The notes under the pieces are model-generated. The model was given only the letters and a program-made list of their open reading frames with translations, was not told where the DNA came from and made no database searches. DNA of 60,530 bases, filler included. It is 5 parts of 5 records of this genome, joined end to end, with 100 filler letters (N's around TTAATTAATTAA, not from the genome) between each part and the next. Parts side by side here need not be neighbours in the genome. Positions count along the whole stretch, not along the records: positions 15,514 to 32,805 come from SRR31156797_31048; 4 more parts are not named here. One strand, 5' to 3'. Positions 6,226 to 33,633 of the stretch are shown piece by piece. The position numbers and the translations under genes were made by a program. The number at the start of each line of letters is the position of its first letter. Positions within the stretch are counted from its first letter, which is position 1.

Positions 6226-6300
6226 AACCTCTCCAGTGTTCGTTGTTTCTTCCCGGCGCCGGCTTTCATGTTTGATTTCTCAACGCCTTATGTTTTTTAT

Positions 6301-15513: not shown

Positions 15514-15514
15514 A

Positions 15515-15958
15515 GGAGAGGCGGGCAAGGGTTTTGCTGTTGTGGCGAATGAGATTAAAGAGTTGGCAAAACAAACATCAGAAGCTGCGGGGCAGATTAA
15601 AGATCGTGTAAATATCTTTCAGTCAACCACTGGAGGTTCTGTGAAAAGCATAGGAAAAATTTCACAGGTCATCGGTAATATAAACGATATCGTTTCGACT
15701 ATAGCGACCGCGATTGAAGAACAGACTGCAACGACTGCTGAGATTTCAAGCAACATCGCACAGGTATCACAAGGATTAACAGAAGTAAACGAGAACGTTT
15801 CGCAGAGCGCCGTAGTTTCATCAACAATTTCAGAAGATCTCAGTTCGGTCAATCATGCTGTTGTTGAAATGGCTACCGGAAGCGGTGTGCTTAAGGAAAA
15901 TGCTGAAAAACTAAATGATCTAGCACAAAAACTTGGTAACCTGATTCAAAATTATTAA
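15515..15958 (+). CDS. Methyl-accepting chemotaxis protein, C-terminal part
   Basis: [18 protein letters not shown] signalling-tip motif and [10 protein letters not shown] methylation helix. Confidence 0.93.
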
Positions 15959-15963
15959 TTCGT

Positions 15964-16327
15964 GTATTAGCTACCCGACACATGTTAAGTTTATTCCACG
16001 TCAAAATTTGACGGTAGAAAACTTGACCACAAGATACGAGAACAGATACGCATACGTGCAGTAAAACGCATTGAAGCCGATGGAACTTCAGAAGTTATTA
16101 CCAAGGTACTCGGCTTCCATCGCTCCTGTATCTATGAATGGATTGCTAAATATCGCGAAGGTGGCGTTGAGGCCTTGAGGGCAAACCAATTCCCGGAGCG
16201 ACCCCAAACTCAACGGCAAACAACTTCAGTGGATTTGTAAAACGGTTGTAGGTAAAAACCCGCTGCAGCTCAAGTTGCCTTTTGCTCTTTGGGCGCGAGC
16301 GATGGTCAAGGAGTTGATCAAGCATAA
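15964..16327 (+). pseudogene. IS630-family transposase N-terminal remnant, frameshifted and interrupted by IS5
   Basis: Manual translation: DGRKLDHKIREQIRIRAVKR...GFHRSCIYEWIAKYREGG, then in another frame KLNGKQLQW...[16 protein letters not shown] at the expected start position. Confidence 0.75.
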
Positions 16328-17623: not shown

Positions 17624-17741
17624 TCAAGATTTTACAGGCAGGGTAGGATTCATCCCTCAGCGCTGGAGGATCTTGAATTGGAATATAATTTTGAAAATCG
17701 CTATAGATAACCCCTTCCCAAAAGTCCTTTGGCAGGTTTAT

Positions 17742-20700
17742 ATGCGTTTTTATTGCACTATTCTTTTGGTTCTCATATCAGTGGCAGTGCAATATCAGGA
17801 TACCATTGCGTCATCCCCTCCCAATCGGCAAAAGTCCCTCAGAATGGTGGTCCTGCACTCCTATGACAGTGAGCTGCCCTGGGTAAAATCCACCACAGAC
17901 GGTCTTCGGGAGACTGTAAAGGGGATCAAGGGAGTCAGGTTTTCCCTGTACATCGAACACCTTGACCTGGCCCGGGAAAATCAGCCTGAGTACCGACAAA
18001 AAATAAAGGAAGTGATCCACCTGAAGTACCGGGACAAACAACCGGATATCGTCCTTTGTATTGATACCCTGGCCACCCGGTTCTTTCACTACCATAAATC
18101 AGACCTCTTTCCCGATGTTCCTGCGATTTTTTCCATAACAAAACAGCCCTATCGGCAGGTAAAGAATCTCATGCCGGAGAACTCGGCTGTGGTATTGAAC
18201 CAGGTGGATTATGCAGGTACCTTGGATCTGGCGTTAAAGCTTTTTCCCAAGACCCGAAATATTGTTGTGATCAATGGCCGGACAAAGGGAGGACGCCTCT
18301 CAGAGGAAAAGGTAAAACAAATCAGCTCCCGGTATGAAAACTCTATCCGGTTCCGCTATCTGTCCGGGCTGGAATACGGGCAAATACTAAAAACCGTTGA
18401 AACCCTACCCGAACACTCAATTGTGTTTCAACTCATTTTCCTTGCAGATATCAACGGAAAAAAACATATTCCGGCCCAGGTGGTGGAGGAGGTCTCCCAA
18501 CGGGCCTGCGCCCCGGTTTTCAGCCTGTATGAGCCAATGATCGGACACGGCACCATCGGCGGCCGGATGGTCTCCCCCCTGGATATACAGGGGGATGTGG
18601 TCCGGTTGGCCATACAATTGCTGGAAAACCCCAAGGATACAGCGGGAACCATTCTCACAACCGCAACCAGGCCCATATTTGACTGGCGGCAACTGAAAAA
18701 ATGGAAGGTCAAAGAAAAAATTCTGCCCTGGGAAAGCGACATCAGGTTCAGACAATACTCTTTTTTTCAACTGCACCGTCAAAAGGTCATTGCCGGGGCA
18801 GTCCTTTTGCTGCTACAGGCTGTTTTGATCCTCTTCCTTATAATAAACCTGATCCGCCGGAAAAAGACAGAAGCCTCTTTGCTGGAGTCCCGGAAACAGC
18901 TGGAAGAAAGCCTGGAAGAGCTTTCCTTGAAAAATTTTGTTCTTGAAAATGCACCGGTCTCTGTTATCTGGCTGGATTCAACCGGCCATATCTTTTATGC
19001 CAATAAAATGGCAGCCCGCTCCAGGGGCTATACGCAACAGGAAATTCTTGGTTTAAATATCTGGGACATTGATCTTAAATTGACAAAAGAACGCTTTGCC
19101 GAGTTTTGGCATCAGATGGAAGACGGGATCCCATTGAATTCGGAATCCGTTCATATCAGAAAGGACGGATCAGTATTTCCCATTGAAGTGCATGCCCGGC
19201 AGAACACCTATAAAAACCAGCGGCTTAATTTCGGATTTGTCTATGATATTTCAAAACGAAAAATTGCTGAAGAAAATCTGAAAATCAGTGAAGACCGTCA
19301 CCGCTCCATTGTGAGAAGCGCCATGGACGGCTTTATGATAACCGACTTTAAAGGCCGTCTGACCCAAGTGAACCCGGCATACTGCCAGATGCTCGGATAT
19401 ACGGAAAAAGAGCTTTTGTCCATGTCCATTAAGGACGTGGAGGCCTTATTTACCGAGGATGAAATCCAAAGTCAGATCGCAGAAATTGTACAACAGGGGC
19501 AGATACGATTTGAAAGCCGGCATCGCCACAAGAGCGGCCGAATTTTGGATGTGGAGCTGAGCAGCCAGTATCAGGCAAGCCATGGGGAGAACCTCTTTTA
19601 TTTTATCCGGGATCTCACTGAGCAAAAACAGGTCCAGTCCGCACTTCAGCAGTCCCAGAAAATGGAGGCCGTCGGAACGCTGGCAGGAGGAATTGCCCAT
19701 GATTTCAACAACATCCTTGGTGCCATTATCGGCTATGCCGACCTGATCCGCCACCGATACAAGGACAACAACGATCTTATCCGTCATGTTGAGCAGATCC
19801 TCCATGCCGGCCGCCGGGCAAAGGGTCTGGTCATGCAGATTCTTTTGTTCAGCCGGAAAAGCGATCAACAAAGCATCCCCCTTGATATCCAGCCCATGGT
19901 CAAGGAAATCATCAGACTTTTGCAGGTGACCCTACCGCCTGGCATTGAAATCGAACCCTCTTTTACAACCCTGCCCGGAAAAATTCTGGCAGATCCGGAC
20001 CAGATCCATCAAATCATCATGAACCTTTGCACCAATGCCATTTATGCCATGGAAGACAAGGGCGTGCTCTCCATCGAGCTGGAGGAAGTGCTTCTGGATG
20101 ACACCATGGCCGCTGCATTGCCCGGACTTCAACCGGGCAGATTTATCAGGCTTAAGATCAGTGACACCGGATGCGGTATTCCCAGTGAGATAGTGGACCA
20201 GATTTTCGATCCCTTTTTTACCACCAAACCCCAGGGAAAAGGAACCGGCCTTGGGCTGTCCGTGGTTCACGGAATATTGAAAAGCCATGGCGGGGCTGTC
20301 AAAGTTTACAGTGAACCCGGACAAGGCACGACATTCAATATTTTTCTGCCGGTAAGCCAGGACGGAGATGCAATTGAGCCTGCCGCAGACAAGATTGTTC
20401 CCACAGGTTCTGAAACAATCCTGCTTGTGGACGATGAAACCGCCCTGGTGGATGTGGCAAAAACCGTGCTTGAACGACTGGGGTATACCATCCAGGGGTT
20501 TTCAGACAGCCAAAAGGCCTGGCAGCATTTTAAAAGGAATCCCGGCCAATTCGACCTGGTGCTTACAGATAAAAATATGCCGGGATTGACAGGAATTCAA
20601 CTGGCGGAAATGGTACAGGCCATATGCCCAGGCATTCCCATTATCATGTGCACGGGATTTTTCGATGCCCCAGCTGCTGAGCTGGCTGAAAAGGCGGGAA

Positions 20701-20786
20701 TTCTGGATATACTTAACAAGCCGGTTCTCACGGATGAGCTGGCCATTGCCATTAGAGGGGCACTTAGTAATCAAAGGGAGCAATAA
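17742..20786 (+). CDS. Hybrid sensor histidine kinase (periplasmic ligand-binding domain, 2 PAS, HisKA, HATPase, REC)
   Basis: [14 protein letters not shown]-box, [26 protein letters not shown], receiver LLVDDE...D-x-x-MP; start moved to ATG 17742 (signal-like N-terminus). Confidence 0.92.
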
Positions 20787-20813
20787 CGGCTGACACTCCC
20801 TCTTTTGTGGGGC

Positions 20814-21330
20814 TTATTTTTGATATCCGGCCCTGTGTAACGATTTTTTAACATTACCGATCATAGTATTGACCCATTTGAAAACACCAAACTCATCATA
20901 CCCGTTTTCCGTACGGAAAATAATAGGTTCATGCTCGCAGTCAGCATCCTCGACACCAGGGAAGCAATTGAGGCCGTCTGATACCACCAGTGCATAAAGA
21001 CTAAGGTGTTTCTTGGCCCACTTTGTCAGTTCGTCCTTTGTGAACCCGGCAACCTGACTCAAACGCATTTTAACAGGGTGCCCTTCTTCGGTTAAAGAAA
21101 TTGATGCCACAAATGGGCTTTTGCCTGTTGCCCCACGACCTCGAACTCCATCGTTTTTCTTGCCGCTCCAATACGCGTCGTCGATAACCACCAGCTCATT
21201 CAATGGTTGGGAATCATCCCTTTCCTTCATTGCCTGCTGGAGCTTATGTTTAATGCGCAGTGCTGTATTGGCAGATACTCCAAGGGTGCGGCCAAGATGT
21301 AATGCAGAGATACCGGTTTTGGTCTTGGTT
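20814..21330 (-). pseudogene. IS1595-family transposase internal fragment
   Basis: KTGISALHLGRTLGVS...KHKLQQAMKERD...IDDAYW...RGRG...K-x-PFVA, VSDGL, WVNTMIGN; both ends missing. Confidence 0.8.
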
Positions 21331-21427
21331 GATTATGACATAGCGGGTTTATCATATAGTGACTGACCTGCAAAATAAATGCGGCTGAAGTTCAGTGGTA
21401 ATCAAAAATTATTTAGTCGAATAAAGA

Positions 21428-22071
21428 AACCCTTGGCCTTCGGCCAAGGTCAGAGTTCATAGGCTTTGCCGTATGGACGACTCATTGCTAAATCTTTCTC
21501 TATGTTGTCCCCACAACGTAGAAGAAGGAGAAAACAATGAGTCGATTCCGAAAGTTATCATAAATTATATAGCACTGCCAGTACCACATAGTTTTCGTCC
21601 TAAATATCGATTCAAGATAGTAGTAAGTGATGTAGCCAATGAGGTAGAGAGGTGTATCAGGGCGTTTGCCGAGCAACAACAAGCAGAGATTGTAGAACTT
21701 AATATCCAGTTGGATCATGTTCATCTGCTGGTCAATGTACCTCCGAAGGTCTCGATATCGAATTTTGTAGGAACGTTAAAAGGCAGAACAGCGATTCGAA
21801 TATTGAACAAGTTCCGTAACCTGAAGAACAAGCCCTATTGCGGTAATCACTTTTGGCCCCGCGGTTACAGTGTTGATGCCGTTGGTTTTGATGCTGAAAT
21901 GATAAGGAAATATGTCAAGTATCAGGATGAACGGGATAGCGTACACGAACAACGTCGTTTATTTTAACAAAAAATGGAGGCAATTCCCTTTGCCTCTTCA
22001 AGGGGCAAAGCAGTTTGTCCCTTTTTAGGGGTTAACCAATACCGGCCTCTCTAGGGTCGGTTGTTTGTTCA
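21428..22071 (+). mobile_element. IS200/IS605-family element (tnpA only), defective
   Basis: Left hairpin CCTTGGCC-TTC-GGCCAAGG 21431-21449; right hairpin ACCGGCC...GGTCGGT 22041-22061. Confidence 0.75.
21537..21967 (+). pseudogene. tnpA: IS200 TnpA (Y1 HUH transposase) pseudogene
   Basis: SD GAAGGAG and ATG 21537 give MSRFRKLS*II*HCQYHIV (two stops, then a frameshift to PKYRF); DHVHLL HUH motif and KYVKYQ catalytic Tyr. Confidence 0.88.
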
Positions 22072-22106
22072 TTATATCAACTTGTTATAGTGACAGTACC
22101 ATTGAG
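22071..22106 (+). repeat. 36-bp imperfect direct repeat, copy 1 (contains IHF consensus)
   Basis: ATTATATCAACTTGTTATAGTGACAGTACCATTGAG; 29/36 identical to 29586-29621. Confidence 0.6.
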
Positions 22107-22371
22107 AGGGTGCGAAAGAAATTGGGTTCAAGCCCCCTTACACTTGAGGCCTTAGATATTCATAGAACTGAAGATTGCCCTAGTGTGCTTTACCCATGAA
22201 GATGAAATTTTACTGACATTAAATTCACGCACGATAAGCTTTTCAACCTACCATTCCTTGTACATGAGTTCTAAAACCTGCTTAGGACCTTAAACAAAAT
22301 GAGGGGACCAGCAACACTTGCTAATCCCCTTATCTATTAACTGGTAACTATGTTTTTTGCTGTCGCAAACG

Positions 22372-22761
22372 TTACTTCTTATAGTTTGGGTAGTCGAATG
22401 AGTGGCAACCTGCACAAAGTGGCTTTCTTTCCTGATGTTCCCCATGACATTCCATGCAGGGCACCTCTTTGCCGTAATGTAGATTATTGTGAGGGTTCTG
22501 CCATTTTTCATCTTCTGGTCTGGCCGTTGCTTCAACCAACTCATCACCATCATGACACTCAAGACAGGAAAAATCACCAGGAAAGGTTACAGGCTCAGCT
22601 TGCGCGTGGCAAGAGTCGCATGAGTTGTCGGCGTACAGGTCAGCGTGATAGCTTCTTCCCTTGGTGTTATCAAACTGCTGGAGAGTTTCACCGCCAATAA
22701 CTACCCCCGCTACAAGAAGGGCTAGTGTTGTTAAAAACAGTATTTTAATTTGAGATTTCAT
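22372..22761 (-). CDS. Periplasmic tetraheme cytochrome c
   Basis: Sec-type signal; four CxxCH motifs (CDSCH, CLECH, CMECH, CAGCH); NPHNNLHYG. Confidence 0.93.
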   Translation of the reverse strand: MKSQIKILFLTTLALLVAGVVIGGETLQQFDNTKGRSYHADLYADNSCDSCHAQAEPVTFPGDFSCLECHDGDELVEATARPEDEKWQNPHNNLHYGKEVPCMECHGEHQERKPLCAGCHSFDYPNYKK

Positions 22762-22784
22762 TTTTTCTCCCTTTTAAGCAAAAA

Positions 22785-24311
22785 TCATGTATTCATCATG
22801 GTTCTAACAGCCGTCATGCCCATAACCATACAGTCTGGGATTGAGCAGCTTCCAAGTCGGCTCACTCCGTGCATACCACCTGTAACCTCACCCCCGGCGT
22901 AAAGGCCAGCAACAGGCTTCCAATCAACTGAACTTAAAACACGTGCCTGGAGATCGATCTTAACACCACCCTGACAGTAGTGAACCTTGGGCCAGTTACG
23001 AACAACAACAAAAGGGGCCTCGATAAACTTACCTTTAGCTTTTTTCATCGGCTTGCCGAACTGCTCATCCACACCGGATTTTACATACCCGTTGTACTCT
23101 TCGATCTGGGCTTTAAGTGGCTTAAGAGGAACCTTGAAATGATTGGCAAGTTCTTCAATGGTGTCAAATTTCCAACCCACCTTGTACTTGAGCACTTTTT
23201 TCATGGTTGGATGCTCTTTCGCATGCTTGTAACTGGTGATGGTGATCGGTGGCAGTGGATCACCGTTATCATCACGGCATCCCAACTGTGCGTCAGAGCG
23301 GGTTTTACGGTCAGCAATTTCGTTCATGAAGCGCTGGCCGGTTTTGGTGTATATTGAAATGGAATGGGCGAAGTTATAGATGGAGTAGTTGGAAACATAA
23401 CCAAAACCATCTTCATCGGGAGATGCCCAAGGGCCAGTTTGGATATGGGCCATATGGACAGGAATTGCGCCAGCCTTGAACATTTCCAATAGTGCTTCAC
23501 CGGTCGCACTAGGTGGATTGGTGGACGGAACCTCAGCGGTCAAAGTTGGATCCTGAGCCTTTCGCAGCTCAACGTTTCGTGCAAATCCACCGGTGGCCAT
23601 CAGTACCCCGCGCTTGGCTTTAATATTTACTGGCGTACCTTCTACCCCCCTGCCAAAGTAGTGGCCCATCAACATTTTTACACCAACAACAGCTCCTTGA
23701 TCGTCAAAAATAAGACTGTCAAACTTGGCACGGGTAACCATCTTTACACCGAGCTTCTTACACTGTTTTACCAGCGGCTGAACAATACCAGCCCCACTTG
23801 CGACAGTGGTTTGATAGGTTCTTGGGACAGAGTGACCGCCCAATTGCTGAAGATATGGAAAGTATTCACTTCCAGCATCAAGTGTCATCTGCAGTGCTTC
23901 ACCGGCATGCTTTGCCACATGGAGCAGGAGATCTTTATCAGCTATCCCGCGACCAGCCTTGACTTGATCTGCTGTCATTATTTCCGGTGAATCCTTAACG
24001 CCTTCCTTTTTCTGCAACGGGGAGGCGGGTACTGCAAATAGTCCACCATTATAGGTTGAGTTTCCACCGTAATAGGGCATTTTGTCGTATACAACAACGT
24101 CTTTTGCCCCAAGTTTTTTTGCTTCGATTGCTGCTGCCAACCCTGTGAATCCAGAACCGATAATAACTATATCGTGTTCTTCTGCCCACTGAGTAGAATT
24201 GTCCGCAGCCATGACTTTTATCGCTGGTGCAGCAACAGTTGCTGCTCCTGCAACCCCCAACCCGACCAAAAACTTCCTTCGATCAGCTTGATATCCTGAC
24301 TCTTTTCCCAT
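22785..24311 (-). CDS. Tat-exported flavocytochrome c flavin subunit (Fcc3/methacrylate-acrylate reductase-like)
   Basis: SD GAGGTG and ATG 24311; DRRKFL twin-Arg; IIGSGFTGLAAA FAD motif; IQTGPW, ADRK, KVHYCQGG, GMHGVSRLGS. Confidence 0.9.
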   Translation of the reverse strand: MGKESGYQADRRKFLVGLGVAGAATVAAPAIKVMAADNSTQWAEEHDIVIIGSGFTGLAAAIEAKKLGAKDVVVYDKMPYYGGNSTYNGGLFAVPASPLQKKEGVKDSPEIMTADQVKAGRGIADKDLLLHVAKHAGEALQMTLDAGSEYFPYLQQLGGHSVPRTYQTTVASGAGIVQPLVKQCKKLGVKMVTRAKFDSLIFDDQGAVVGVKMLMGHYFGRGVEGTPVNIKAKRGVLMATGGFARNVELRKAQDPTLTAEVPSTNPPSATGEALLEMFKAGAIPVHMAHIQTGPWASPDEDGFGYVSNYSIYNFAHSISIYTKTGQRFMNEIADRKTRSDAQLGCRDDNGDPLPPITITSYKHAKEHPTMKKVLKYKVGWKFDTIEELANHFKVPLKPLKAQIEEYNGYVKSGVDEQFGKPMKKAKGKFIEAPFVVVRNWPKVHYCQGGVKIDLQARVLSSVDWKPVAGLYAGGEVTGGMHGVSRLGSCSIPDCMVMGMTAVRTMMNT

Positions 24312-24531
24312 GATTTCACCTCGTTTGTTGTGGATGCTTTTTGGCCCTTGCTGATGGTTACACATAGCAAAAACCCAAAACTCTATATGGGCTGGACTAT
24401 ATCCTGACGTGATAAGGGGGTGTAGGGGAGAGATCGGGGTTTTATCGGGTAAAAAAGCATACCCGACCAAGAGTGTTGAGGTAGAAAATTACCAGTGACG
24501 GGTGGTTTGTTACTTAAGCAGCCTTGTAATG

Positions 24532-25965
24532 TTAGCGAGCTGTTTCTGCAGCTTTTTTCCCTGCAATTCGACCAAAAACCAAGCACTCAACAATGGAATT
24601 GCTTCCAAGCCTGCTGGCTCCGTGGATACCGCCGGTCACTTCACCGGCTGCAAAAAGACCGGGGATGGATACTCCATCGGTAAGACGCAGGACCATAGCG
24701 TCTGTGTTAATTCTCACACCACCCATGCAGTAGTGAACTTTGGGAAGGAGGCGTATTGAATAAAATGGAGGCTTTTCGATCGGTTTCAAATCATCGGGTA
24801 TTGGCTTGCCGAATTCTGTGTCACTTCCATGGAGAAGATGCAGTTTATATATCTCAAGGGATTCCTTCAGAGGTTGCAGTGGGATCATATTAAATGACGC
24901 AAGCTCTTCTATGGAATCAAAGGCATGGACAACTTTTCGTTTCAAACATTTTTCCAGGGTGGTCGCATGCTGTACCCCCTCTGAATCAACGATGGCAATA
25001 GGTGTACGGTCACTCATAAGCATCGCATCAGTCCGAAGTCGCCTATCAGACATTTCGTTAACAAATCGCTTACCAGTGTTGGCATCCACCATAATACCGT
25101 AGGGAAACCCAGCCAGCAAAGTGAACATGGAACCAACGCCCCAGCCTTTTTCTTCAAATGAGGCCCATGGGCCAAGCTGTACCCAGCACAGTTGAAGTGG
25201 AGTTGCACCTACCTCAAGGGCAGCGATCAAGCCTTCAGCGGTTGCGCCGCCATGATTTGTGCTATCCACATTCTCCGTAAGCCTTGGATCCTGGATTCGT
25301 CTGAAAGCCAAGTCATTGGAAAAACCACCGGTTGCAAGCACCACCCCTTGCCGTGCCTTTATTTGTTTCAAAACTCCAGATTCAGGATTAGAAAAATGAT
25401 AGCCGGAACGGACCAAAACACCTTCGACGCCACCGTTTTCATCGGTGAGCAGCTGGGTTAACTGGGTTTTCATCCGCACTTCAATCCCAAGGGAGCGGCA
25501 TTTTGCGAGCATCGGCTGGATGAGACCTGAACCAGTTCCTTTTTTTGTAATATAAGTGCGGGCAACGGAATGCCCGCCAAGGTGATTAAGAGAGTCCTTG
25601 TATTCAACACCGAGGTAGTCCACAGTCCAATCTAGTGTTTCCACTGATTGCTCTGTTACCAGTTTGGCAAGTTCACGGTGGTTCAGTCCGGTTCCAGCTT
25701 TCAGCATGTCGCTCAGCATGAGTCCGGGGCTGTCAGTTATTCCTTTACGGGCTTGCAGCTTTGACCCTGCAGCAGCAAAAAGCCCGCCGCAGATTGCGGA
25801 ATTCCCTCCAGGTGTCCGCATCTTTTCCAACACAAGTACATCACTTCCGAAAAGCCGTGCTTCTATTGCTGCGGCTAGACCTGCAAACCCAGACCCGATA
25901 ACAATTACATCGCGCTCTTCATCCCACACTCTGTTTTCCACTACAGATGATCCTCCGTTACTCAA
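24532..25965 (-). CDS. Flavocytochrome c flavin-subunit paralogue without signal peptide (cytoplasmic)
   Basis: VIGSGFAGLAAA about 20 aa from the N-terminus; VQLGPW, SDRR, KVHYCMGG, GIHGASRLGS; upstream gene ends 3 nt before the ATG. Confidence 0.88.
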   Translation of the reverse strand: MSNGGSSVVENRVWDEERDVIVIGSGFAGLAAAIEARLFGSDVLVLEKMRTPGGNSAICGGLFAAAGSKLQARKGITDSPGLMLSDMLKAGTGLNHRELAKLVTEQSVETLDWTVDYLGVEYKDSLNHLGGHSVARTYITKKGTGSGLIQPMLAKCRSLGIEVRMKTQLTQLLTDENGGVEGVLVRSGYHFSNPESGVLKQIKARQGVVLATGGFSNDLAFRRIQDPRLTENVDSTNHGGATAEGLIAALEVGATPLQLCWVQLGPWASFEEKGWGVGSMFTLLAGFPYGIMVDANTGKRFVNEMSDRRLRTDAMLMSDRTPIAIVDSEGVQHATTLEKCLKRKVVHAFDSIEELASFNMIPLQPLKESLEIYKLHLLHGSDTEFGKPIPDDLKPIEKPPFYSIRLLPKVHYCMGGVRINTDAMVLRLTDGVSIPGLFAAGEVTGGIHGASRLGSNSIVECLVFGRIAGKKAAETAR

Positions 25966-25968
25966 TGG

Positions 25969-27633
25969 CTATAAAACCCGTTCCGTAAGAAATGAGTGTA
26001 AGTTAATATCCTTACCTCGTAGGCCAAGCTTTTTACGAATATTTTTTCGGTGGGTCTGGATTGTTTCAAATGATACATTCATTGCTTCACAAATCTCCTT
26101 ACCTGTCAAACCGGCTTTAATGAAACGACACACCTTGATTTCTGTTTTACTCAGCTTCAGAAGATCCCCATCAGGTACTGCAGTAAAATCAAGGGTCAGG
26201 GCTATCATTTGTTCCTGTAACACAGACAGATAACCAGCGCGGCTATCTTTGTCAGGTTCCTGAAGAATTCGAGCAATGGTTGGCAGAAGCGATGAGCGAA
26301 TGCGGGTGGAGAGGTTTTCTTCAAATTCCCGTTTTTCACTTTCTATTGATTTCAGCACATTTTTCAATGTTACATTCATCTCTTCAGCGTGCTGCTTTTG
26401 GGTAATGATATCAGTTTCAAGCTCCTTTTGTCTGGTAATATCCCAGATGGTGATCGGCCAAAATTGCTTATCATCAAGGTGCATGGAGGTCACAGTTACT
26501 CGTGATGGAAACTCCCTACCATCCACATAGAGGCTTGTACACTCAATGCTCTCAATTTCACCCTCTTCAAGAGTGTTACAGATAGACTCCATGGCCTTCA
26601 GCCCCTGCTCATCGGTTAAAGTATGGTAATCACTGCCCATGAGAACCTCAGGAGGGATTCCATACATCTCACTGGCCGTCCTGTTTGCCTGGATAATCTC
26701 AAGGTCTTTGTCCAGTAAGAGTATTCCTTTTCCTATGGAGTGAAAAATGGAATCAAGAAGCTTTTCTGACTTTGCTAGTGCCCTGGTGCGCTCAACAACC
26801 CGTTGCTCAAGCATCTGCCTATGATCTACAGTACACGTAATATCACTTAAAATAAGCAGCAACCCTTTGGCAAGGGGGTAACTTTTTGACAGAAGTCTGA
26901 TTTCAAGAGTAAACACCCTTTTTGCCCCATGTAAGAGAAAAGAAATTTCGTGAGGTTTGCCAGGCAGGTAGTTATCTAGAAGTTGCTCCATATCATTTGC
27001 GATCCGCAGCAAATTCCCACAAAAAGCCCCAGGTATTTTTTCGCCTGAAAAGAAAATTTTTGCTGCCGGGTTCACCTCGGTGACAACACCGTGCTCGTCT
27101 GTAATGAGAACAAGGTTGGAGGTTGATTCAAAGGTATTCTTATAAGCGGTATTGACTTGAGTATTTTTTAACCAGGTTGCCTGCTGTTGCTTGAGCATTT
27201 TTTGGTGATCATTGGCCGCTACTCTGGAGAGGAGCGTTGTTTCGATGCAGTCGGTTACTTTATGTAGGATTGTCACTTCCACAAACTTTTTATGGTTTGT
27301 AGTGACGCACCTTTCGATAAAGGTCTCAAGAGTGAGTCGTAGTGTTTTCACCCAGTGAACAACCTGGGATAAGCGGTAACCCTCGGTGTGTAGATCAGCT
27401 GAGAGGGCGTTAAAGAATTGAATCTCATTAGCCAGGATAGTCGGTGTAACTTTTCCATCGCGGCAAGGGCCTTTAATCTCTTTTAAACAAGAAATCAGAT
27501 GTAAGAAAGCATTGGTGACCACACCATGAGAGATGCTGGCAATAGGTACTGCGGTGTTTTGGTACTCAAACTGCCAAACCTGCATTATTTCTGAGAGTCT
27601 ACTCTCTAAATCTCTCTCAATTTCGGGGATCAC
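25969..27633 (-). CDS. PAS-domain LuxR-family transcriptional regulator
   Basis: Two PAS-like domains, S-helix LEQRVVERTRAL, C-terminal LuxR HTH LSKTEIKV...SFETIQTHRKNIRKKLG. Confidence 0.88.
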   Translation of the reverse strand: MIPEIERDLESRLSEIMQVWQFEYQNTAVPIASISHGVVTNAFLHLISCLKEIKGPCRDGKVTPTILANEIQFFNALSADLHTEGYRLSQVVHWVKTLRLTLETFIERCVTTNHKKFVEVTILHKVTDCIETTLLSRVAANDHQKMLKQQQATWLKNTQVNTAYKNTFESTSNLVLITDEHGVVTEVNPAAKIFFSGEKIPGAFCGNLLRIANDMEQLLDNYLPGKPHEISFLLHGAKRVFTLEIRLLSKSYPLAKGLLLILSDITCTVDHRQMLEQRVVERTRALAKSEKLLDSIFHSIGKGILLLDKDLEIIQANRTASEMYGIPPEVLMGSDYHTLTDEQGLKAMESICNTLEEGEIESIECTSLYVDGREFPSRVTVTSMHLDDKQFWPITIWDITRQKELETDIITQKQHAEEMNVTLKNVLKSIESEKREFEENLSTRIRSSLLPTIARILQEPDKDSRAGYLSVLQEQMIALTLDFTAVPDGDLLKLSKTEIKVCRFIKAGLTGKEICEAMNVSFETIQTHRKNIRKKLGLRGKDINLHSFLTERVL

Positions 27634-27791
27634 TTAGAATGTTTCCTTTTGGTTGTGAGGTTGAGTAGTCCCAATTAAGGGGGCGGGTGAGTTTCAGTAC
27701 TTTCAGTAATAATGGGTTGTGGGGGAATTATGATCTTGGCTGTTTACGACCAGAACCGGTAGCTGGACTTGATCAAAGGGTTAGATTTTAT

Positions 27792-27820
27792 AAAAAAGGG
27801 CCGGTATCTAAACCGGCCCT
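27792..27820 (-). terminator. Rho-independent terminator after acuI
   Basis: Minus strand: AGGGCCGGT-TTAGAT-ACCGGCCCT followed by a T run. Confidence 0.75.
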
Positions 27821-27847
27821 GATACTGTTGAGTGTTCTACTTGGGGC

Positions 27848-28852
27848 TTACTTGCTCACCTTCACAATTGCACGACCACGGTTTTTACCTTGGAGGATCA
27901 TGTCAATACGCTCGTCCAGTGCTTCCAGGTCTTCCAGTTCGGTGGTAATTTTATCCAGGTAATCAAGCTTCCAGTCAGAAGCAATTTTATTCCACACTGC
28001 CATACGGGTATCAACCGGGCAGTTCACTGAATCGATCCCAAGCAGAGAGACCCCGTTCAGGATAAAAGGATAAATGGAGGATTCCAGTTCTGCAGATCCT
28101 ACGTTACCGCAGCAGGTTACAGAACCACCGTACTTGGTTGTTTTAATAGCTGTTGAGAGAATGTTGCCAGCAACGGTGTCAATGGCACCAGCCCAACGGG
28201 GCTTAAGAATTGGTCGGCCACTCTTATCATCGGCTTCTTCAATGGAGATAACTTCTTTTACACCCAGCTCAAGCAGGTATTCCGTCTCATCTTTGAGCCC
28301 GTTCACCGCAATCACCTCGTAACCGGATTTAACCAGGATAGAAACCGCGATGCTTCCAACACCACCGGTGGCACCAGTTACCAGTACCGGCCCATCTTCA
28401 GGCTTAACTCCGTTGTTGATCATTTTGTAGCAAGAAAGAGCTGCGGTAAAACCAGCCGTTCCGTACACCATGGACTCACGAAGGGTGAGATTTTCAGGTA
28501 GCTTTACTATCCAGTGCGCTGGTACGCGGATATATTCCTGGTATCCACCAGAGTGGTTCATGCCCAGATCATAACCGGTGATGAGTACCTCTTCACCGGG
28601 GGTGAACTTCGGGTCATTACTCTCAACTACCTTACCTGCTGCATCAATGCCAGGGGTATGTGGGTAATAACGACTTACGCCCTTGTTACCGGTTGCTGAG
28701 AGCGCGTCCTTGTAGTTGAGGGAAGAGTATTGAACCTTTATGATCACATCGCCTTCTGGGAGGTCATTGATTTCTTTTTGGGTGATTTCACGGGTAAAAG
28801 TCTTGTCTTTGCCTTCGGTGACTATCATTGCTCTAAATGCCAGGTTTTCCAT
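27848..28852 (-). CDS. acuI: YhdH/YhfP-family MDR oxidoreductase (acryloyl-CoA reductase AcuI-like)
   Basis: YSSLNYKDAL, PGIDAAG, GTAGFTAA, VTGATGGVGS, PFIL-x-GVSLLGIDSV. Confidence 0.8.
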   Translation of the reverse strand: MENLAFRAMIVTEGKDKTFTREITQKEINDLPEGDVIIKVQYSSLNYKDALSATGNKGVSRYYPHTPGIDAAGKVVESNDPKFTPGEEVLITGYDLGMNHSGGYQEYIRVPAHWIVKLPENLTLRESMVYGTAGFTAALSCYKMINNGVKPEDGPVLVTGATGGVGSIAVSILVKSGYEVIAVNGLKDETEYLLELGVKEVISIEEADDKSGRPILKPRWAGAIDTVAGNILSTAIKTTKYGGSVTCCGNVGSAELESSIYPFILNGVSLLGIDSVNCPVDTRMAVWNKIASDWKLDYLDKITTELEDLEALDERIDMILQGKNRGRAIVKVSK

Positions 28853-28878
28853 AATCAGCTCCTCATTGTGTTTGTGTG

Positions 28879-28898
28879 ATATGACCAGTCGTCTTGAA
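28879..28898. promoter_or_regulatory. TetR operator upstream of acuI
   Basis: ATATGACCAGTCGTCTTGAA, 19/20 identical to 29531-29550. Confidence 0.8.
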
Positions 28899-28942
28899 CT
28901 AAGGTGAAGTTCGGTATTTTTAAAAACTGCTTAATTTTTGGG

Positions 28943-29521
28943 TTATTTAAGAATGAAATCCCGCAGGCTATGTTGAAAGCTCAAAAGCGGTTTTTCGTTT
29001 TTATTAGCCTTCATTATTACCAAAGCGCCAAGCCAGCTGTTCCGCAGCAAGTCGGCAATTTGGTAAATATCGCTTTGTGGTGCCAGGTCGCCCTTGTCTT
29101 TGGCTTCCTGCAAACAATCAATAACTGGCTGGTACTCTTGTTCAAAGGCGCTGGCCGCCTCTGCAGCAATTACTTCACTGAGATCAGCCATCTCAAGGGT
29201 AATATTACAGAGAAAGCAACCAAAAGAATAACGCCCCTTGCTGATGAAATGCTCAATTTTCATCCGGTACAGGTTTTCAATCCGCTCAAGGGGCGGCGTT
29301 TGGACATCGGTGAGTATTTCTTCCATAACTGCCAGCTCTTTGGTAGTGAAATACTGCATGGCAGCAACGGCAAAATCTTCTTTTGAGCTGAAATAATTGT
29401 AAAAGCTTCCTTTAGGTATTCCGGCAGCATCGGTGATTTCTTTCACACCGGTTGCGTTGTACCCTTTACGGTAGAGTGCCCTTAAACCTTCTTTGATGAT
29501 GAGCAGTTTTTTCTCTTTCAT
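28943..29521 (-). CDS. TetR-family repressor (NemR/AcuR-like)
   Basis: KGYNATGVKEITDAAGIPKGSFYNYFSSKE HTH; GCFLCN motif. Confidence 0.92.
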   Translation of the reverse strand: MKEKKLLIIKEGLRALYRKGYNATGVKEITDAAGIPKGSFYNYFSSKEDFAVAAMQYFTTKELAVMEEILTDVQTPPLERIENLYRMKIEHFISKGRYSFGCFLCNITLEMADLSEVIAAEAASAFEQEYQPVIDCLQEAKDKGDLAPQSDIYQIADLLRNSWLGALVIMKANKNEKPLLSFQHSLRDFILK

Positions 29522-29527
29522 GCTGTT

Positions 29528-29556
29528 ATCATATGACCGGTCGTCTTGAAATGCAA
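29528..29556 (-). promoter_or_regulatory. Sigma70 promoter of tetR with operator in the spacer; likely leaderless transcript
   Basis: Minus strand: TTGCAT, 17 nt, TATGAT, 6 nt, ATG; operator ATATGACCGGTCGTCTTGAA at 29531-29550. Confidence 0.72.
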
Positions 29557-29585
29557 GAAGGTTTTTACTTTTTTTTTATTCACTT

Positions 29586-29621
29586 ATTATATCAACATGT
29601 TATATGCATAGTGCCGTTGAG
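29586..29621 (+). repeat. 36-bp imperfect direct repeat, copy 2 (contains IHF consensus)
   Basis: ATTATATCAACATGTTATATGCATAGTGCCGTTGAG. Confidence 0.6.
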
Positions 29622-30562
29622 TTGATCTCGCCTCAATAAAGTGGAGTGCCAATCAGATCTCTTTCTGATACTGCATCCCAATTAGTCATAGATTACCTAG
29701 GTTGAAATTACCTGACGATCTATTAAGTCTGCAATCTAGCTTTAGCTTGAGATGATCGCTGTTTCTACGAATCAAAAGTCACCAGCAATTTTTCAAAAAA
29801 AATCAACTGATCAGCCAAAGTTAATGATATCCTGATTTCCCAGTGGGATAATGACGATACCAGGGTTTGGATTTCCTTATATGGTGAGATCGACCAACAA
29901 CCAAAAAATGTTCAAGAATGGAGCAACTGCTGACATTAGCCTAGCAAAGACAACCTTAAGCCGGACTTATGAATATCGGGATTGAGCGTAGCCTTGAATC
30001 CATACTTCCAGTGAGTGAACTATGAGCTTGACATTGCCAAGTCGAAGGTAATGAATTTTGTCACTTGCCACAACTTGAGGTGCTTCCTGTCTTTTTACGG
30101 AAACAGCACTGAGTTTGTGTAAAATGACCTGCACATTGTCACTAAAAACGGCTCCAGCCTATCATTTTGCGGTGTGATTTAATCTTGCCAGTAATTTCTG
30201 CAGAACATTAAACTTACCTCATAGAAGCTACTGTTTCCTAAAAAAAGCAAATGAGACACGTTGTAGCAACTGGCTGATTATCCAATCAGTATCACAGATA
30301 CAGACATATAAAAGTAATAAATAAAATTGTTGGAAATCAGCGGTATTGGAATCGTATAATATGATAAGGTTAATTTCAATAAACTGAAAGCCAACCATGA
30401 AAAAACTACACGAATTTGTTCTGTGACATAGAGCTGTTGGGCAATGATATCGTTTATTTTGATAAGGAGTTCGCTATCATTGCAACCTATATCGACCTAG
30501 TCGATGCATTACCTTGCTGGCAAGTAACTTGTGAATTAATTAGAAACTCTGGACCATCATCA

Positions 30563-32335
30563 ATGCAGATAAATAAATACAAAGAAATCTGTACGATCGT
30601 TTTCGTTTATTTCATGTTTGGTGCCGCTTGGATTTTTTTATCAGATTCGATGCTTAGCTGGTTTGTTATTGACCCTGAAACCATAACAAAAATATCTATT
30701 TTCAAAGGCTTGTTTTTCATTATTATCACCTCTGTTCTTCTTTTCCTTCTGATTACTCGTTTTAAAAACAAGATCGACTCGTCGATAATTGCATTAAGAA
30801 AAAGTGAGGAGCAGTATAGGCTTTTAGTAGAAAATCAAACAGACATGATCGTGAAGGTAGACCTTGAAGGCCAGTTGCTGTTTGTCAGTCCGGCATATTG
30901 CAGAACCTTTGGCAAGAAAGAGGAAGACTTACTCGGACATAAATTTATGCCTCTTGTGCATGAGGAGGATCGAGAGTCGACAACAGAGGCTATGAAGGAG
31001 TTATTCTTTCCTCCTCACGCAGTCTATCTTGAACAACGTGCAATGACAAAAGACGGGTGGAGGTGGCTCGCTTGGGCAGACACGGCTGTACTCGACGATG
31101 ACGGGAATGTAATTGGAATTATTGGCGTTGGACGTGATATCACAGCACAAAAGGAAATTGAAGAAGAGCGAAAAAAACTGCAAGCTCAACTGCTACAATC
31201 CCAAAAAATGGAAGCCATGGGAACTCTTGCAGGGGGTATCGCTCATGATTTCAATAATATTTTAACCTCCATCATTGGTTACGCAGATCTCCTCAAGCTA
31301 AAAATACAAAAGACCAGTGACCTAAACGACTACCTTGATCCAATTCTCCATGGCAGTGATCGGGCAAAAAAACTAGTTAAACAAATTTTGACATTTAGCA
31401 GAAAAGAACTGGATACTAATTTCATCTTAGATCCAGCCCCTGTTGTAACAGAAGCACTCAGACTTCTCCGCTCCACCTTACCCACAACGGTTGAAATCAA
31501 GGAACAGATTGACCCGGATTGTGGAGCCATTCTGGCTAACCCGACCGGTATTCAACAAACCTTGATCAATCTATGCACCAATGCAGTTCATGCAATGGAA
31601 GCAGAGAAAGGTCTAATCACTGTACAACTGCACAGAGTATTTTTAAAATCTTCCGACGTTAAGGATAAGCCCAATGTTCCAGAAGGAACCTTTGTCGAAT
31701 TATTGGTAGGTGATACAGGCTGTGGTGTCGACCCAAAGATACTCGATCGTATTTTTGAACCGTATTTTTCAACAAAAGAGGTCGGCAAAGGCAGTGGGCT
31801 TGGATTAGCAATAGTCCATGGCAACGTCAAAAATTTTGGGGGATTCATTCATGTTGAAAGTGACCAGAACAAAGGAACCACATTTCATGTTTATTTTCCA
31901 ATCTCTAGTCAAAAGCCTTTTACAATTGAACAGGAGCCGCTGAACCAGGAAAGTCTTCCTAAAGGTAGTGAACGAATTCTGGTTGTTGATGACGAAGAAT
32001 TAATTGCTACTATGTATAAAGAAATACTTGCGACCCTGGGCTATACGGTTACAGCCATGAGTAATAGTAAACAAGCATTTGAATCCTATAAATCTTCTCC
32101 GGATATGTTTGATCTTATTCTTACCGACCAGACTATGCCTGACATGACGGGGATGGAGTTGGCAAGCGAGATATTAAAGTTCCGACCTGAGATCCCTATA
32201 ATCCTGTGTACTGGCTATAGTGCAGTGATTTCAGAAAATGAGGCTCAGGATCTTGGCATCTGCAAGTTTCTGATGAAGCCGGTTGATAAAAAGATTCTTG
32301 CAATAACCATTCGCGAAGTTTTGGATAATAAGTAG
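30563..32335 (+). CDS. Hybrid sensor histidine kinase (2 TM, PAS, HisKA, HATPase, REC)
   Basis: [11 protein letters not shown] motif, [31 protein letters not shown]...DQTMP; start moved to ATG 30563. Confidence 0.92.
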
Positions 32336-32449
32336 GTTAATTGAGAAATGCATGGACTTATTTATGCTTCTTCTAAGCTACCGAATATCTCCTGTTAATT
32401 TTGACTGGATGATAGCACGACCAGGTCTGAACTAATTCACCTTATCTGT

Positions 32450-32805
32450 TTATACGTAACAAAGTGAAAACCGCATAAAGTGTTATAATGCGGTCATTAA
32501 CATCCTGTTTTTTCAACAAAGAAAAAGGAGGACATGATGACCGAAACAACAGGTATACGCCAAGACGTACTAACTCCTGATTACCATCCAACCGCCCCAT
32601 CTCGCTCCAGCTTTCCGGAACCCGCATCCGGGACCGTCCCTTATAAACGCAAGATATTGGACCGCAGGACTACACGCATAACCGCAAGTGGCTGCCAGGC
32701 AACCAATTAGTCACAGCATACTTGCACGGCAAATATATCAAGAACCTTTCGCATCGTACCATTGACCATGCAGGCGGCGTCATTCTGGCTTTCATGCATT
32801 TCCTC
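32450..32805 (+). mobile_element. Probable left end of a RIT-like tyrosine-recombinase element with frameshifted first integrase, cut by the contig end
   Basis: TTATACG-N15-CGCATAA end-like motif; SD AAGGAGG and ATG 32534; after a frameshift near 32692 reads LPGNQLVTAYLHGKYIKNLSHRTI...FMHFL, like an integrase SAM-like N-domain. Confidence 0.45.
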
Positions 32806-32905
32806 NNNNNNNNNNNNNNNNNNNNNNNNNNNNNNNNNNNNNNNNNNNNTTAATTAATTAANNNNNNNNNNNNNNNNNNNNNNNNNNNNNNNNNNNNNNN
32901 NNNNN
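32806..32905. other. Artificial contig-joining spacer
   Basis: N44-TTAATTAATTAA-N44. Confidence 0.97.
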
Positions 32906-32986
32906 GGCCACCCCTTTGACGAAGTCCCGGCCGTATTTCCGGTCGGTTTCGAAATCGAGGAGGATATGGGGGTACTTTTTTTTCAT
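32906..32986 (-). CDS. N-terminus of a XylR-like sugar-binding regulator, cut by the contig end
   Basis: SD GGAGG; MKKKYPHILLDFETDRKYGRDFVKGVA resembles XylR N-termini. Confidence 0.5.
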
Positions 32987-33058
32987 CTGCGCGCCTCCGC
33001 AGCCTAACGTTCCATTACGGTAAGACGGTCACGATAAGCGGCCATTCTTTTGTAGATT

Positions 33059-33316
33059 TTATCCCAGCGGAGTATCCCCTTCGGGAAGCAGCTGCGCAGC
33101 GCCGACGCAATCCTTTCCGATCTCAAAGAAATCCTCAACGACTTTTCCCGAGTATCGAGAGTGGCGTCCTGTCAGGGGCATGGAGAGGGAGAGAGATCTT
33201 CTCAAAGGAGAATCAAGCCAACTCTCGGCGTACTGAAAGGAGTGTTCCCTCCCGATGCTCCAGGTACCCATCATTTCCCCGTTCAGCCGGACCTGTAGGG
33301 ATTGAGCCTGTCCCAT
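33059..33316 (-). pseudogene. hipA: HipA toxin remnant (N-terminal domain with internal deletion, kinase domain lost)
   Basis: LNG-x-x-x-G-x-W, FQY-x-x-SWL, LSLSMP, then FFE joined directly to IGKDCVGAAQLLP; stops after 85 aa. Confidence 0.82.
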
Positions 33317-33318
33317 GC

Positions 33319-33558
33319 CTACCACTCCGCCTCTATAACAAGGTCTTTACTCTGAACCTGTATCTGGATATCCAGAGCGGACAGGTACTTATAAAGCGAT
33401 TCTATGCTGCATCGTTCAGGATTGTTTTCAAGAAGAGAAACGGTTTTGGGAAGAAGGCCGCGTTTCTCCGCAGCCTCTTTCTGTGTCAGATTCAACTCTT
33501 TTCGTCGACCTCTCAGAATTTTCCCCAGCTGATCGGCAGTTGGCGCGTGACTATCCAT
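33319..33558 (-). CDS. hipB: HipB-like XRE antitoxin
   Basis: QLGKILRGRRKELNLTQKEAA...TVSLLENNP HTH directly upstream of the hipA remnant. Confidence 0.85.
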   Translation of the reverse strand: MDSHAPTADQLGKILRGRRKELNLTQKEAAEKRGLLPKTVSLLENNPERCSIESLYKYLSALDIQIQVQSKDLVIEAEW

Positions 33559-33562
33559 TGCT

Positions 33563-33633
33563 CATCCCCTGTAGGGTATCTTTTTGCATTATACCCTACA
33601 GGGATAATTTGTGAATACACCCTACAGGGTATA
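33563..33633. promoter_or_regulatory. Three HipB-type palindromic operators
   Basis: CATCCCCTGTAGGGTATC (33563-33580), TATACCCTACAGGGATAA (33590-33607), TACACCCTACAGGGTATA (33616-33633); shared core CCCT(AC/GT)AGGG. Confidence 0.8.

Follow-up and report, generated by a model that had tools for sequence, protein, structure and literature searches.

A predicted ArdAB-type acrylate reductase, its signal-less paralog, and a separate AcuR-AcuI-like pair on a Desulfocapsaceae-like contig

We analyzed a stretch of 60,530 nucleotides of DNA (here, the window) and report on six adjacent genes that it carries on the minus strand between positions 22372 and 29521. In our reading, to which we give a probability of about 0.7, the locus consists of three units: a gene pair, ardAB, that would serve the respiration of acrylate; a gene for a PAS-LuxR regulator paired with the gene for a signal-less flavoprotein (here, cytoFlav); and an independent acuR-acuI-like pair. 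The initial annotation had proposed the six genes as one candidate module that may both respire a small enoate, such as acrylate derived from dimethylsulfoniopropionate (DMSP), and detoxify acryloyl-CoA. All six minus-strand open reading frames (ORFs) were found, Pfam and NCBIfam agree with the label given to each, and the genes do lie side by side; however, they look like three units, with the tetR-acuI pair standing apart and ending in a terminator-like hairpin of its own. The locus is a variant of a published acrylate cluster: its regulator is different, a cytoplasmic paralog and an AcuR-like repressor are added, and the piece of DNA that holds it carries no lyase.

The flavoprotein that bears a twin-arginine translocation (Tat) signal is encoded at 22785 to 24311 (minus strand). 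Its ORF spans 22785 to 24470 if a TTG at 24470 is taken as the start, but the true start is most likely the ATG at 24311 (MGKESGYQADRRKFL...), because this codon is preceded by a GAGGTG ribosome-binding site, agrees with the length and start of related proteins, and leaves a conserved intergenic operator outside the gene that the TTG extension would swallow. Read from this ATG, the protein has 508 amino acids, begins with a twin-arginine signal (MGKESGYQADRRKFLVGLG...), and matches both PF00890 and TIGR01813 (477 bits against a cutoff of 285). We searched a collection of 5.8 billion proteins for homologs; one of the matches listed (P0070) is a Shewanella woodyi protein entered in UniRef as "Acrylate reductase flavoprotein subunit." BLASTP aligns the two proteins with 336 of 496 positions identical (68%) and no gaps. 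The loop GFGYVSNYSIYNF is the same in both without a single change, and the active-site segments HIQ[T/S]GPWASPDE.GFGYVSNYSIYNF, NEIADRKTR, WPKVHYCQGGV, and HGVSRLGSCSIP are identical or nearly so. The nearest relatives among the matches listed, at 72 to 95% identity, are unnamed metagenome proteins and proteins of Desulfosediminicola, Desulforhopalus, and Desulfuromonas.

We built two trees, one with IQ-TREE from 48 sequences and one with FastTree from 155 rows; Mrd, FccA, and UrdA are not among the named rows of either. The window protein and S. woodyi ArdA fall together in a clade of 12 rows (SH-aLRT, an approximate likelihood-ratio support, of 98 in IQ-TREE and support of 98 in FastTree), and all 12 rows share the loop GFGYVSNYSI[YF]N[FL]. 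Fumarate-type proteins with HPT...TEAVR, one of which carries four heme motifs, form the outgroup in the IQ-TREE tree, where two branches, each 0.81 substitutions per site long, set them off; FastTree gives the same picture. A grouping with fumarate or urocanate reductases, which the initial annotation had named as a refutation, was thus not seen, for trees in which no row is named UrdA, FccA, or Mrd. Given the 68% identity, the identical GFGYVSNYSIYNF loop, and the shared clade, the Tat flavoprotein is, by sequence, an ortholog of ArdA.

Its partner is a tetraheme cytochrome c of 129 amino acids (22372 to 22761, minus strand; PF14537 at 1.7e-12) with a Sec-type N-terminal signal and CxxCH motifs at residues 48, 66, 102, and 116, whose gene starts 23 bp after ardA. 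To place the pair in context, we made one scan of species-representative genomes with the window ArdA as query, which yielded 68 loci (referred to below by L numbers) with up to 10 kb of sequence on each side; we called ORFs in these loci and used BLASTP to match them to the window proteins and to the DMSP lyase DddY from L019 and L057. The exact-loop loci number 46, comprising 29 from Gammaproteobacteria, nine from Desulfuromonadia, six from Desulfobulbia, and two labeled only "delta." An ArdB-like gene lies directly 3' of ardA in 44 of these 46, all 63 ArdB-like ORFs of the 68 loci have four CxxCH motifs, and the window cytochrome is 42 to 74% identical to the cytochromes 3' of ArdA in related loci. 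Judged by orthology to ArdA and by the tetraheme partner, the periplasmic pair is well supported as a respiratory enoate reductase, as had been proposed.

We compared active-site motifs by phmmer alignment to Shewanella flavocytochrome c3 (Fcc3) structures, including 1d4c, using chain numbering. In the literature, Motif I (R402, H504, R544) binds the C4 carboxylate of the substrate, Motif II (H365, T377) binds the C1 carboxylate, and Motif III (E378, R381, R402) forms the proton path (bioRxiv 10.1101/2022.01.20.477176). Both window flavoproteins keep the equivalents of R402, H504, and R544, and both have glycine in place of H365 ("iqaHPt" aligns with "iqtGPw" and "vqlGPw", that is, QTGPW and QLGPW), in agreement with the initial annotation on both counts. 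In the Tat flavoprotein, the Motif I residues and the loop after GPW are the same as in S. woodyi ArdA. Owing to the greater length of the loop in the GPW superclade, the Thr377 equivalent is placed differently by phmmer, by MAFFT, and in the published Clustal alignment. The initial annotation had also pointed to the Q-x-GPW motif; it is present in both proteins, but it is not diagnostic, since GPW is common to most rows of a 42-row superclade that includes Tat-bearing and signal-less proteins, and the loop that follows it varies by clade. Fumarate reductases of the Fcc3 type have His365 and Thr377 for the second carboxylate and a fused tetraheme domain, whereas the window flavoproteins have glycine and no heme motifs. 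The urocanate reductase UrdA has an N-terminal FMN_bind domain, which the window flavoproteins lack, and its structure 6t85 has tyrosine at the His365 position ("iqsYpi").

The ArdAB enzyme of S. woodyi is a periplasmic flavocytochrome for which both subunits are required; it has a Km of 16 uM for acrylate, reduces methacrylate 22-fold more slowly, is inactive on crotonate, fumarate, urocanate, and cinnamates, and is induced by acrylate under anoxia (bioRxiv 10.1101/2024.02.11.579808). Its cluster consists of acuI, a hypothetical gene, a regulator, ardA, ardB, and dddY, and according to the same authors acuI is common in dddY clusters (bioRxiv 10.1101/2024.02.11.579808). The window locus resembles that of ArdAB (Swoo_0275/0276; Bertsova et al.) in its Tat flavoprotein, its separate Sec-exported tetraheme cytochrome, and an acuI-family gene nearby, and on sequence grounds the periplasmic pair adds one more member to the published ArdAB family. 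The locus differs in having a PAS-LuxR regulator, where the Shewanella loci examined have a LysR-type gene between acuI and ardA, in adding cytoFlav and an AcuR-like TetR protein, in lacking dddY on the piece, and in coming from a host that appears Desulfocapsaceae-like. The initial annotation knew of no such combination in sulfate-reducer-like organisms; in fact, both the linkage of ardAB with acuI, in S. woodyi and in other marine bacteria, and a connection to the acrylate-respiring sulfate reducer Halodesulfovibrio aestuarii (formerly Desulfovibrio acrylicus), whose dddY cluster includes an ArdA-like gene, are already in print (bioRxiv 10.1101/2024.02.11.579808).

The six genes appear to be organized in three transcription units, acuR-acuI, PAS-LuxR with cytoFlav, and ardAB, because terminator-like hairpins follow the acuI-like gene and ardB and because the regulator gene ends only 3 bp before cytoFlav starts. 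The hairpin 3' of ardB (22302 to 22330, minus strand) has a stem of 13 pairs and a T-rich tail and lies 42 bp past the stop codon; its identification is a consensus match only. The hairpin 3' of the acuI-like gene (27797 to 27820, minus strand) has a stem of nine pairs, seven of them GC, followed by TTTTTT, and lies 28 bp past the stop codon. The remaining spacers gave inverted repeats only as hairpins at 22299 to 22333 and 30089 to 30128, and an Rfam scan of positions 15000 to 35000 returned zero matches.

The middle unit begins with a regulator of 554 amino acids (25969 to 27633, minus strand) of PAS-PAS-LuxR/GerE architecture, with PAS at residues 293 to 388, GerE at 494 to 540, and no receiver domain. 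The cytoFlav gene that follows (24532 to 25965, minus strand) encodes 477 amino acids that are 44% identical to the window ArdA (TIGR01813, 445 bits). Its only domain matches are of the FAD_binding_2 type, at residues 19 to 458, and a signal peptide is impossible, given the gap of 3 bp that separates its start from the end of the regulator gene. Relatives of 465 to 480 amino acids without Tat motifs occur in Desulfosediminicola (69 to 74% identity), Malonomonas, Desulfuromusa, and Desulfofustis and in Smithellaceae and Syntrophaceae (58 to 62%). Together they form a clade distinct from ArdA (support of 86 to 88 in IQ-TREE and 97 in FastTree), and their loop, G[WF]GVGS[MLI]F[TS][LMI]LAGF, is nearer to that of the H. 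aestuarii flavoprotein (GFGVASMFNIQSGF) than to the ArdA loop. The two flavoproteins had been taken together as parts of one enoate module; the Tat protein is indeed ArdA, but the signal-less protein belongs to another clade with another loop. Across 29 aligned members the motifs that bind flavin adenine dinucleotide (FAD) and the equivalents of R402, H504, and R544 are invariant. An AlphaFold model of cytoFlav (mean predicted local distance difference test [pLDDT] score of 83, predicted template modeling [pTM] score of 0.80) superimposes on the flavin domains of urocanate reductase and Fcc3 with template modeling (TM) scores of 0.83 to 0.87. Taken from its residues, cytoFlav looks like an active enzyme. 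Most likely it works in the cytoplasm and reduces acrylate, or another small 2-enoate like it, that has leaked in; the main alternative is a sensing role beside the PAS-LuxR regulator. A predicted complex of cytoFlav with residues 1 to 410 of the regulator, made without supplied alignments, scored 0.00 against a mark of 0.34 and carries no weight either way.

The order PAS-LuxR, cytoFlav, ArdA, ArdB recurs in six of the scanned loci: a Desulfocapsaceae metagenome-assembled genome (MAG) (L001), Desulfosediminicola flagellatus IMCC35005 (L061), three Geopsychrobacteraceae MAGs (L002 to L004), and Desulfuromusa (L005). Partial copies stand on the short contigs L040, L066, and L067. Two close relatives, P0001 (95% identical) and P0121 (88% identical), lie on a single metagenome contig of 12,101 bp. 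In L066, ardA appears as two adjacent segments (2747 to 3853 and 3856 to 4269, within 2747 to 4269) and the ORF covers 72% of the query, so its frame is interrupted near 3853 to 3856. In the six complete units, PAS-LuxR is kept directly upstream of cytoFlav with an alignment identity of 39 to 46%. The flanks of the four-gene unit vary between genomes. Directly upstream of PAS-LuxR in L001 lies a gene for a hybrid PAS histidine kinase/receiver (4617 to 6245); the window PAS-LuxR protein, for its part, has no receiver domain. Among the exact-loop loci, the signal-less paralog was found near ardA in eight and PAS-LuxR in seven, all Thermodesulfobacteriota. DddY was found near ardA in 23 of the 46, of which 21 are gammaproteobacterial and the other two are L002 and L004. 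In a check against NCBIfam, DddY of L019 and L052 scored above the cutoff; that of L057 matched over its full length (2e-159, 530 bits) below the cutoff of 800. The DddY proteins of L002 (12457 to 15064) and L004 (8989 to 10278) are 71 to 73% identical to the Shewanella enzyme and are encoded just downstream of the four-gene unit, which ties the unit to DMSP-derived acrylate. In L002, dddY sits behind a DDE transposase gene. Further downstream, L003 (13418 to 14857) and L004 (11000 to 12439) carry a gene for a methyl-accepting chemotaxis protein of 479 amino acids; L003 has no DddY. We found no description in the literature of the four-gene unit in Desulfocapsaceae and Desulfuromonadia or of the palindrome (subscription journals were mostly outside the search, and Figure S1 of the 2024 preprint was not covered), nor one of DddY beside the unit in two Geopsychrobacteraceae genomes.

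Between cytoFlav and ardA lies a spacer of 220 to 310 bp that contains an operator-like block. In the window this block occupies 24422 to 24466 (minus strand). It includes the palindrome TCGGGTA-N8-TACCCGA at 24445 to 24466, which has no second exact copy in the 60.5-kb window, and after it ACCCCGAT and CCCCTAC; all three elements are invariant across eight aligned cytoFlav-ardA spacers. The core CGGGTA-N8-TACCCG was found in 10 of the 68 loci (L001, 9833 to 9852; L002, 9795 to 9814; L005, 9859 to 9878; L061, 9823 to 9842; and six more), always upstream of ardA and in Thermodesulfobacteriota-type units only; it never occurred in the Shewanella, Ferrimonas, or Desulfovibrionaceae loci among the 68. 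Its center lies approximately 130 to 185 bp before the ardA start across loci, and approximately 145 bp in the window. The palindrome is present only where the PAS-LuxR/cytoFlav pair, a remnant of it, or a contig end lies upstream. One such remnant is seen in L044 (5388 to 5672), where only the last 95 residues of cytoFlav are left upstream of the palindrome and ardA. The distribution makes the palindrome a putative binding site of the PAS-LuxR protein. Its heptamer may resemble the TACYYMT sites of NarL-type regulators.

The acuI-like gene (27848 to 28852, minus strand) encodes an NADPH reductase of 334 amino acids of the YhdH/AcuI family within the medium-chain dehydrogenase/reductase (MDR) proteins. 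It exceeds the cutoff of TIGR02823, "acrylyl-CoA reductase family" (440 bits against 297). Its matches in PDB include Ruegeria pomeroyi AcuI (273 bits) and Escherichia coli YhdH (268 bits), and among PDB chains the protein is somewhat nearer to 1xa0 and Bacillus subtilis YhfP than to AcuI or YhdH. Directly upstream, across a gap of 90 bp, the tetR gene (28943 to 29521, minus strand) encodes 192 amino acids whose best NCBIfam match is AcuR (NF051457). The best PDB match is 3bru, which the database labels only "TetR family" and which we take to be the structure of Rhodobacter sphaeroides AcuR. A promoter-like stretch, TTGCAT-17-TATGAT (29528 to 29556, minus strand), read by eye and below the threshold of the promoter scan, ends 6 nucleotides before the tetR ATG, and the gene has no Shine-Dalgarno sequence. 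A short palindrome, GACCGGTC, lies between the two hexamers. By analogy, the tetR mRNA may be leaderless, as in the acuR-acuI-dddL operon of R. sphaeroides, which the pair also resembles in having tetR directly upstream of a YhdH-family reductase gene; in contrast to that operon, the window pair has scores below the equivalog cutoffs, no TAATAGAC-n6-GTCTATTA operator, and no dddL (PMC3017554). The assignment to the AcuI and AcuR families is sound, and the family-level matches make the reductase a probable acryloyl-CoA reductase. The proposal of acryloyl-CoA detoxification therefore stands as far as membership in TIGR02823 goes, but the pair is a separate unit, and the reductase falls below the cutoff of the AcuI equivalog.

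Three other known systems invite comparison. The H. aestuarii flavocytochrome shares with the window pair a sulfate-reducing lineage and a GPW Tat flavoprotein followed by a tetraheme cytochrome; the flavoprotein, 48% identical to the window ArdA and 52% to cytoFlav, falls in a separate clade and has the loop GFGVASMFNIQSGF. This dddY-linked flavocytochrome has been named the probable acrylate reductase of the organism (bioRxiv 10.1101/2024.02.11.579808). Its locus (L057, 6492 to 15221) encodes a reductase of the OYE family, a sigma-54 regulator, the Tat flavoprotein, the tetraheme cytochrome, a fusion of a multiheme cytochrome with cytochrome b (555 amino acids, likely a quinol-oxidizing module), and DddY; no AcuI was found within 10 kb. 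In the Ferrimonas loci (L028 to L033 and L065), we observed a second ArdAB-like pair, 52 to 54% identical to the window ArdA. Its loop, where read (L028 and L033), is GFGYGAGF[SA]LYNF, no DddY or AcuI lies within 10 kb of it, and its substrate may differ.

The Mrd/Mcc system of Geobacter sulfurreducens AM-1 likewise consists of a Tat-exported FAD flavoprotein of the periplasm and a c-type cytochrome with a gene of its own. Mrd has a signal peptide of 55 amino acids, Mcc has 231 amino acids and four to seven heme motifs where the window cytochrome has 129 and four, and the genes are reported as horizontally acquired, with a transposase gene in the flank (PMC4427408); the window locus, too, has transposase genes nearby. 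Among the 120 matches listed for a homolog search that started from P0239, a Tat-bearing relative, none is a named Mrd-type protein. We scanned 354 proteins for the Tat motifs given in Table 1 of that paper (PMC4427408): RRSVIK, RRAMLK, RRAILK, RRGLLQ, RRNIIK, and RRDLIK were absent, and RRDFLK, RRHFLK, and RRSFLK matched proteins that could not be tied to those the paper names. The Shewanella frigidimarina ArdA (L012) does not have the RRNIIK motif. The cytoFlav protein can be compared with ARD of Vibrio harveyi, a cytoplasmic FAD_binding_2 enzyme that acts on acrylate with a proposed role in detoxification. Both have lost the C1-binding histidine and kept only the arginine of the proton relay; however, ARD has three domains (OYE-like, FMN_bind, and FAD_binding_2) and a change of His to Met, whereas cytoFlav is a bare FAD_binding_2 protein with a change of His to Gly (bioRxiv 10.1101/2022.01.20.477176).

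In the mechanism that we propose, ArdA (the Tat-exported FAD subunit) and ArdB (the Sec-exported tetraheme cytochrome c) would form a periplasmic flavocytochrome. Supplied with electrons by cytochromes of the periplasm or the membrane, this enzyme would convert acrylate to propionate, an activity predicted from orthology. Acrylate would serve as a respiratory electron acceptor, as it does in S. woodyi. The PAS-PAS-LuxR protein probably controls ardAB through the palindrome, and cytoFlav would most likely act as the reductase for whatever acrylate, or small 2-enoate like it, enters the cytoplasm. By family membership, the TetR repressor is probably released by acrylate, and the AcuI-like NADPH reductase would remove toxic acryloyl-CoA. 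Because no DMSP lyase was found on the 17.3-kb piece, the acrylate would be taken from the surroundings or made by the product of a gene elsewhere in the genome.

Several results weigh against this three-unit reading. No enzyme assay is known for any Desulfobacterota member, and Mrd, FccA, and UrdA could not be placed by name in the trees. The cytoFlav loop (GWGVGSMFTLLAGF) is unlike that of ArdA, and residues 274 to 286, which form it, are the least confident part of the model (pLDDT below 50). The protein has no domain for electron input, and no conserved partner gene was seen in the flanks examined. A tblastn search of the window with DddY gave no hit (E above 1), which bears out the earlier remark that no DMSP lyase is visible; the absence says little, since the piece covers only 17.3 kb. 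For the remaining pair, the AcuI-like reductase scored 334 bits with the AcuI equivalog NF051456, below its cutoff of 440, the TetR match to AcuR (1.5e-33, 116 bits) is below a cutoff of 247, and the R. sphaeroides AcuR operator TAATAGAC-n6-GTCTATTA had no match at three or fewer mismatches. Finally, not one of the 17 Thermodesulfobacteriota-type loci has acuR-acuI near ardA, and 11 of these loci extend at least 5 kb upstream.

Since the linkage is absent from all 17, the position of acuR-acuI beside ardAB may be accidental. An explanation of this kind, in which ardAB, the regulator, and the paralog are the real unit and acuR-acuI is a general electrophile-detoxification pair that landed nearby on a contig rich in transposons, is possible, and among the alternatives we take it the most seriously. 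It is consistent with the terminator-like hairpin between the units, with the scores below the equivalog cutoffs and CurR as the second-best NCBIfam match of the TetR protein, and with three transposase genes or fragments on the piece. The initial annotation had proposed that linkage of acuI and tetR to the reductase in other genomes would bear on the module, and the outcome is divided: AcuI lies near ardA in 12 of the 46 exact-loop loci (12 of the 29 from Gammaproteobacteria) and in 13 of all 68, every one gammaproteobacterial, and the arrangement is published for S. woodyi, but no such locus comes from this lineage, and a TetR homolog was found in 0 of 46 and 0 of 68. The top family matches of the two proteins, moreover, are the acrylate-specific AcuR and AcuI models, which speaks against this alternative.

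The role of cytoFlav and the substrate of the periplasmic pair leave room for further alternatives. It is conceivable, if unlikely, that cytoFlav is a substrate- or redox-sensing partner that reports cytoplasmic acrylate through PAS-LuxR to the ardAB promoter: the two genes lie 3 to 38 bp apart, in constant order and upstream of the operator, in seven genomes including the window, and the unit holds no electron-donor domain or partner gene, yet 29 members show no variation at the positions for catalysis and FAD binding, as would be expected of an active enzyme. We think it improbable that the periplasmic pair prefers methacrylate, crotonate, fumarate, or urocanate over acrylate. The loop after GPW does vary by clade across the superclade, and Mrd of G. 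sulfurreducens AM-1 is also a Tat flavoprotein with a separate cytochrome; however, the window protein is 68% identical to the acrylate-specific ArdA and has the same loop, the C1-binding histidine used for fumarate is lost with fumarate-type sequences on the far side of the tree, Mcc differs in length and heme motifs as noted, and DddY adjoins the unit in L002 and L004. Least probable is that cytoFlav crosses into the periplasm as a passenger on ArdA (Tat hitchhiking) to make a reductase of two flavoproteins. The genes are adjacent, and both proteins show the same branching order in the Desulfocapsaceae and Desulfuromonadia sets, but cytoFlav is coupled to the regulator, the operator-holding spacer of 220 to 310 bp precedes ardA, S. 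woodyi ArdA works with ArdB alone, and 38 of the 46 loci have no paralog.

The locus sits on the piece from 15514 to 32805 (17,292 bp), one of five pieces into which artificial joins divide the window. There are four such joins, each with TTAATTAATTAA between two runs of 44 N, at 7554 to 7653, 15414 to 15513, 32806 to 32905, and 43765 to 43864; genes past 32805 are therefore not its physical neighbors. Both flavoproteins have their closest relatives in Desulfocapsaceae (Thermodesulfobacteriota, Desulfobulbales), so the host of this piece appears Desulfocapsaceae-like, which fits the earlier label of a Desulfobacterota-like genome for 15514 to 32805. The other four pieces lend the label no support because they are separate contigs of uneven composition; G+C content per piece ranges from approximately 0.36 to 0.57, and the source is a draft bin that may be mixed. 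The same piece carries a cut gene for a methyl-accepting chemotaxis protein, two genes for hybrid PAS histidine kinase/receivers, one on each flank (17673 to 20786 and 30416 to 32335), and transposase genes or fragments: a DDE transposase in two ORFs (16387 to 17489), an IS1595-type fragment (20814 to 21230), and an IS200/Y1 transposase (21473 to 21967) just downstream of ardB. These suggest a mobile or rearranged context. Elsewhere in the window, piece 4 starts, next to the join (33059 to 33558), with a hipB-like helix-turn-helix gene and what by eye resembles an N-terminal fragment of HipA, and piece 5 holds dnaA (51109 to 52437), where GC skew is positive. An mfd-like gene (43865 to 45849) is truncated by the join at 43865; we considered a high-GC island inserted in mfd and rejected it, the break being the artificial join.

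Going beyond the three-unit reading, we raise, as a tentative idea that is more doubtful than not, that marine Desulfocapsaceae and Desulfuromonadia have an undescribed acrylate system spanning two compartments. PAS-LuxR and cytoFlav would be made together, cytoFlav would either sense cytoplasmic acrylate or reduce it with a new type of electron donor, and the regulator would switch on ArdAB through CGGGTA-N8-TACCCG. Cleavage of DMSP in marine sediments frees large amounts of acrylate. To our knowledge, no respiratory acrylate reductase was known before 2024, and we know of only one sulfate reducer shown to respire acrylate, the enzyme of which is still unproven. Desulfocapsaceae and Desulfuromonadia have close orthologs of ArdAB, among them the cultured species Desulfosediminicola flagellatus, D. 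ganghwensis, and Malonomonas rubra, so acrylate respiration is directly testable in these groups. If the two-compartment system is real, acrylate respiration would be common in sediment Desulfobacterota and independent of a DMSP lyase of their own. The conserved regulator, operator, and paralog offer handles on how cells detect an electron acceptor that is toxic and keep the cytoplasm safe.

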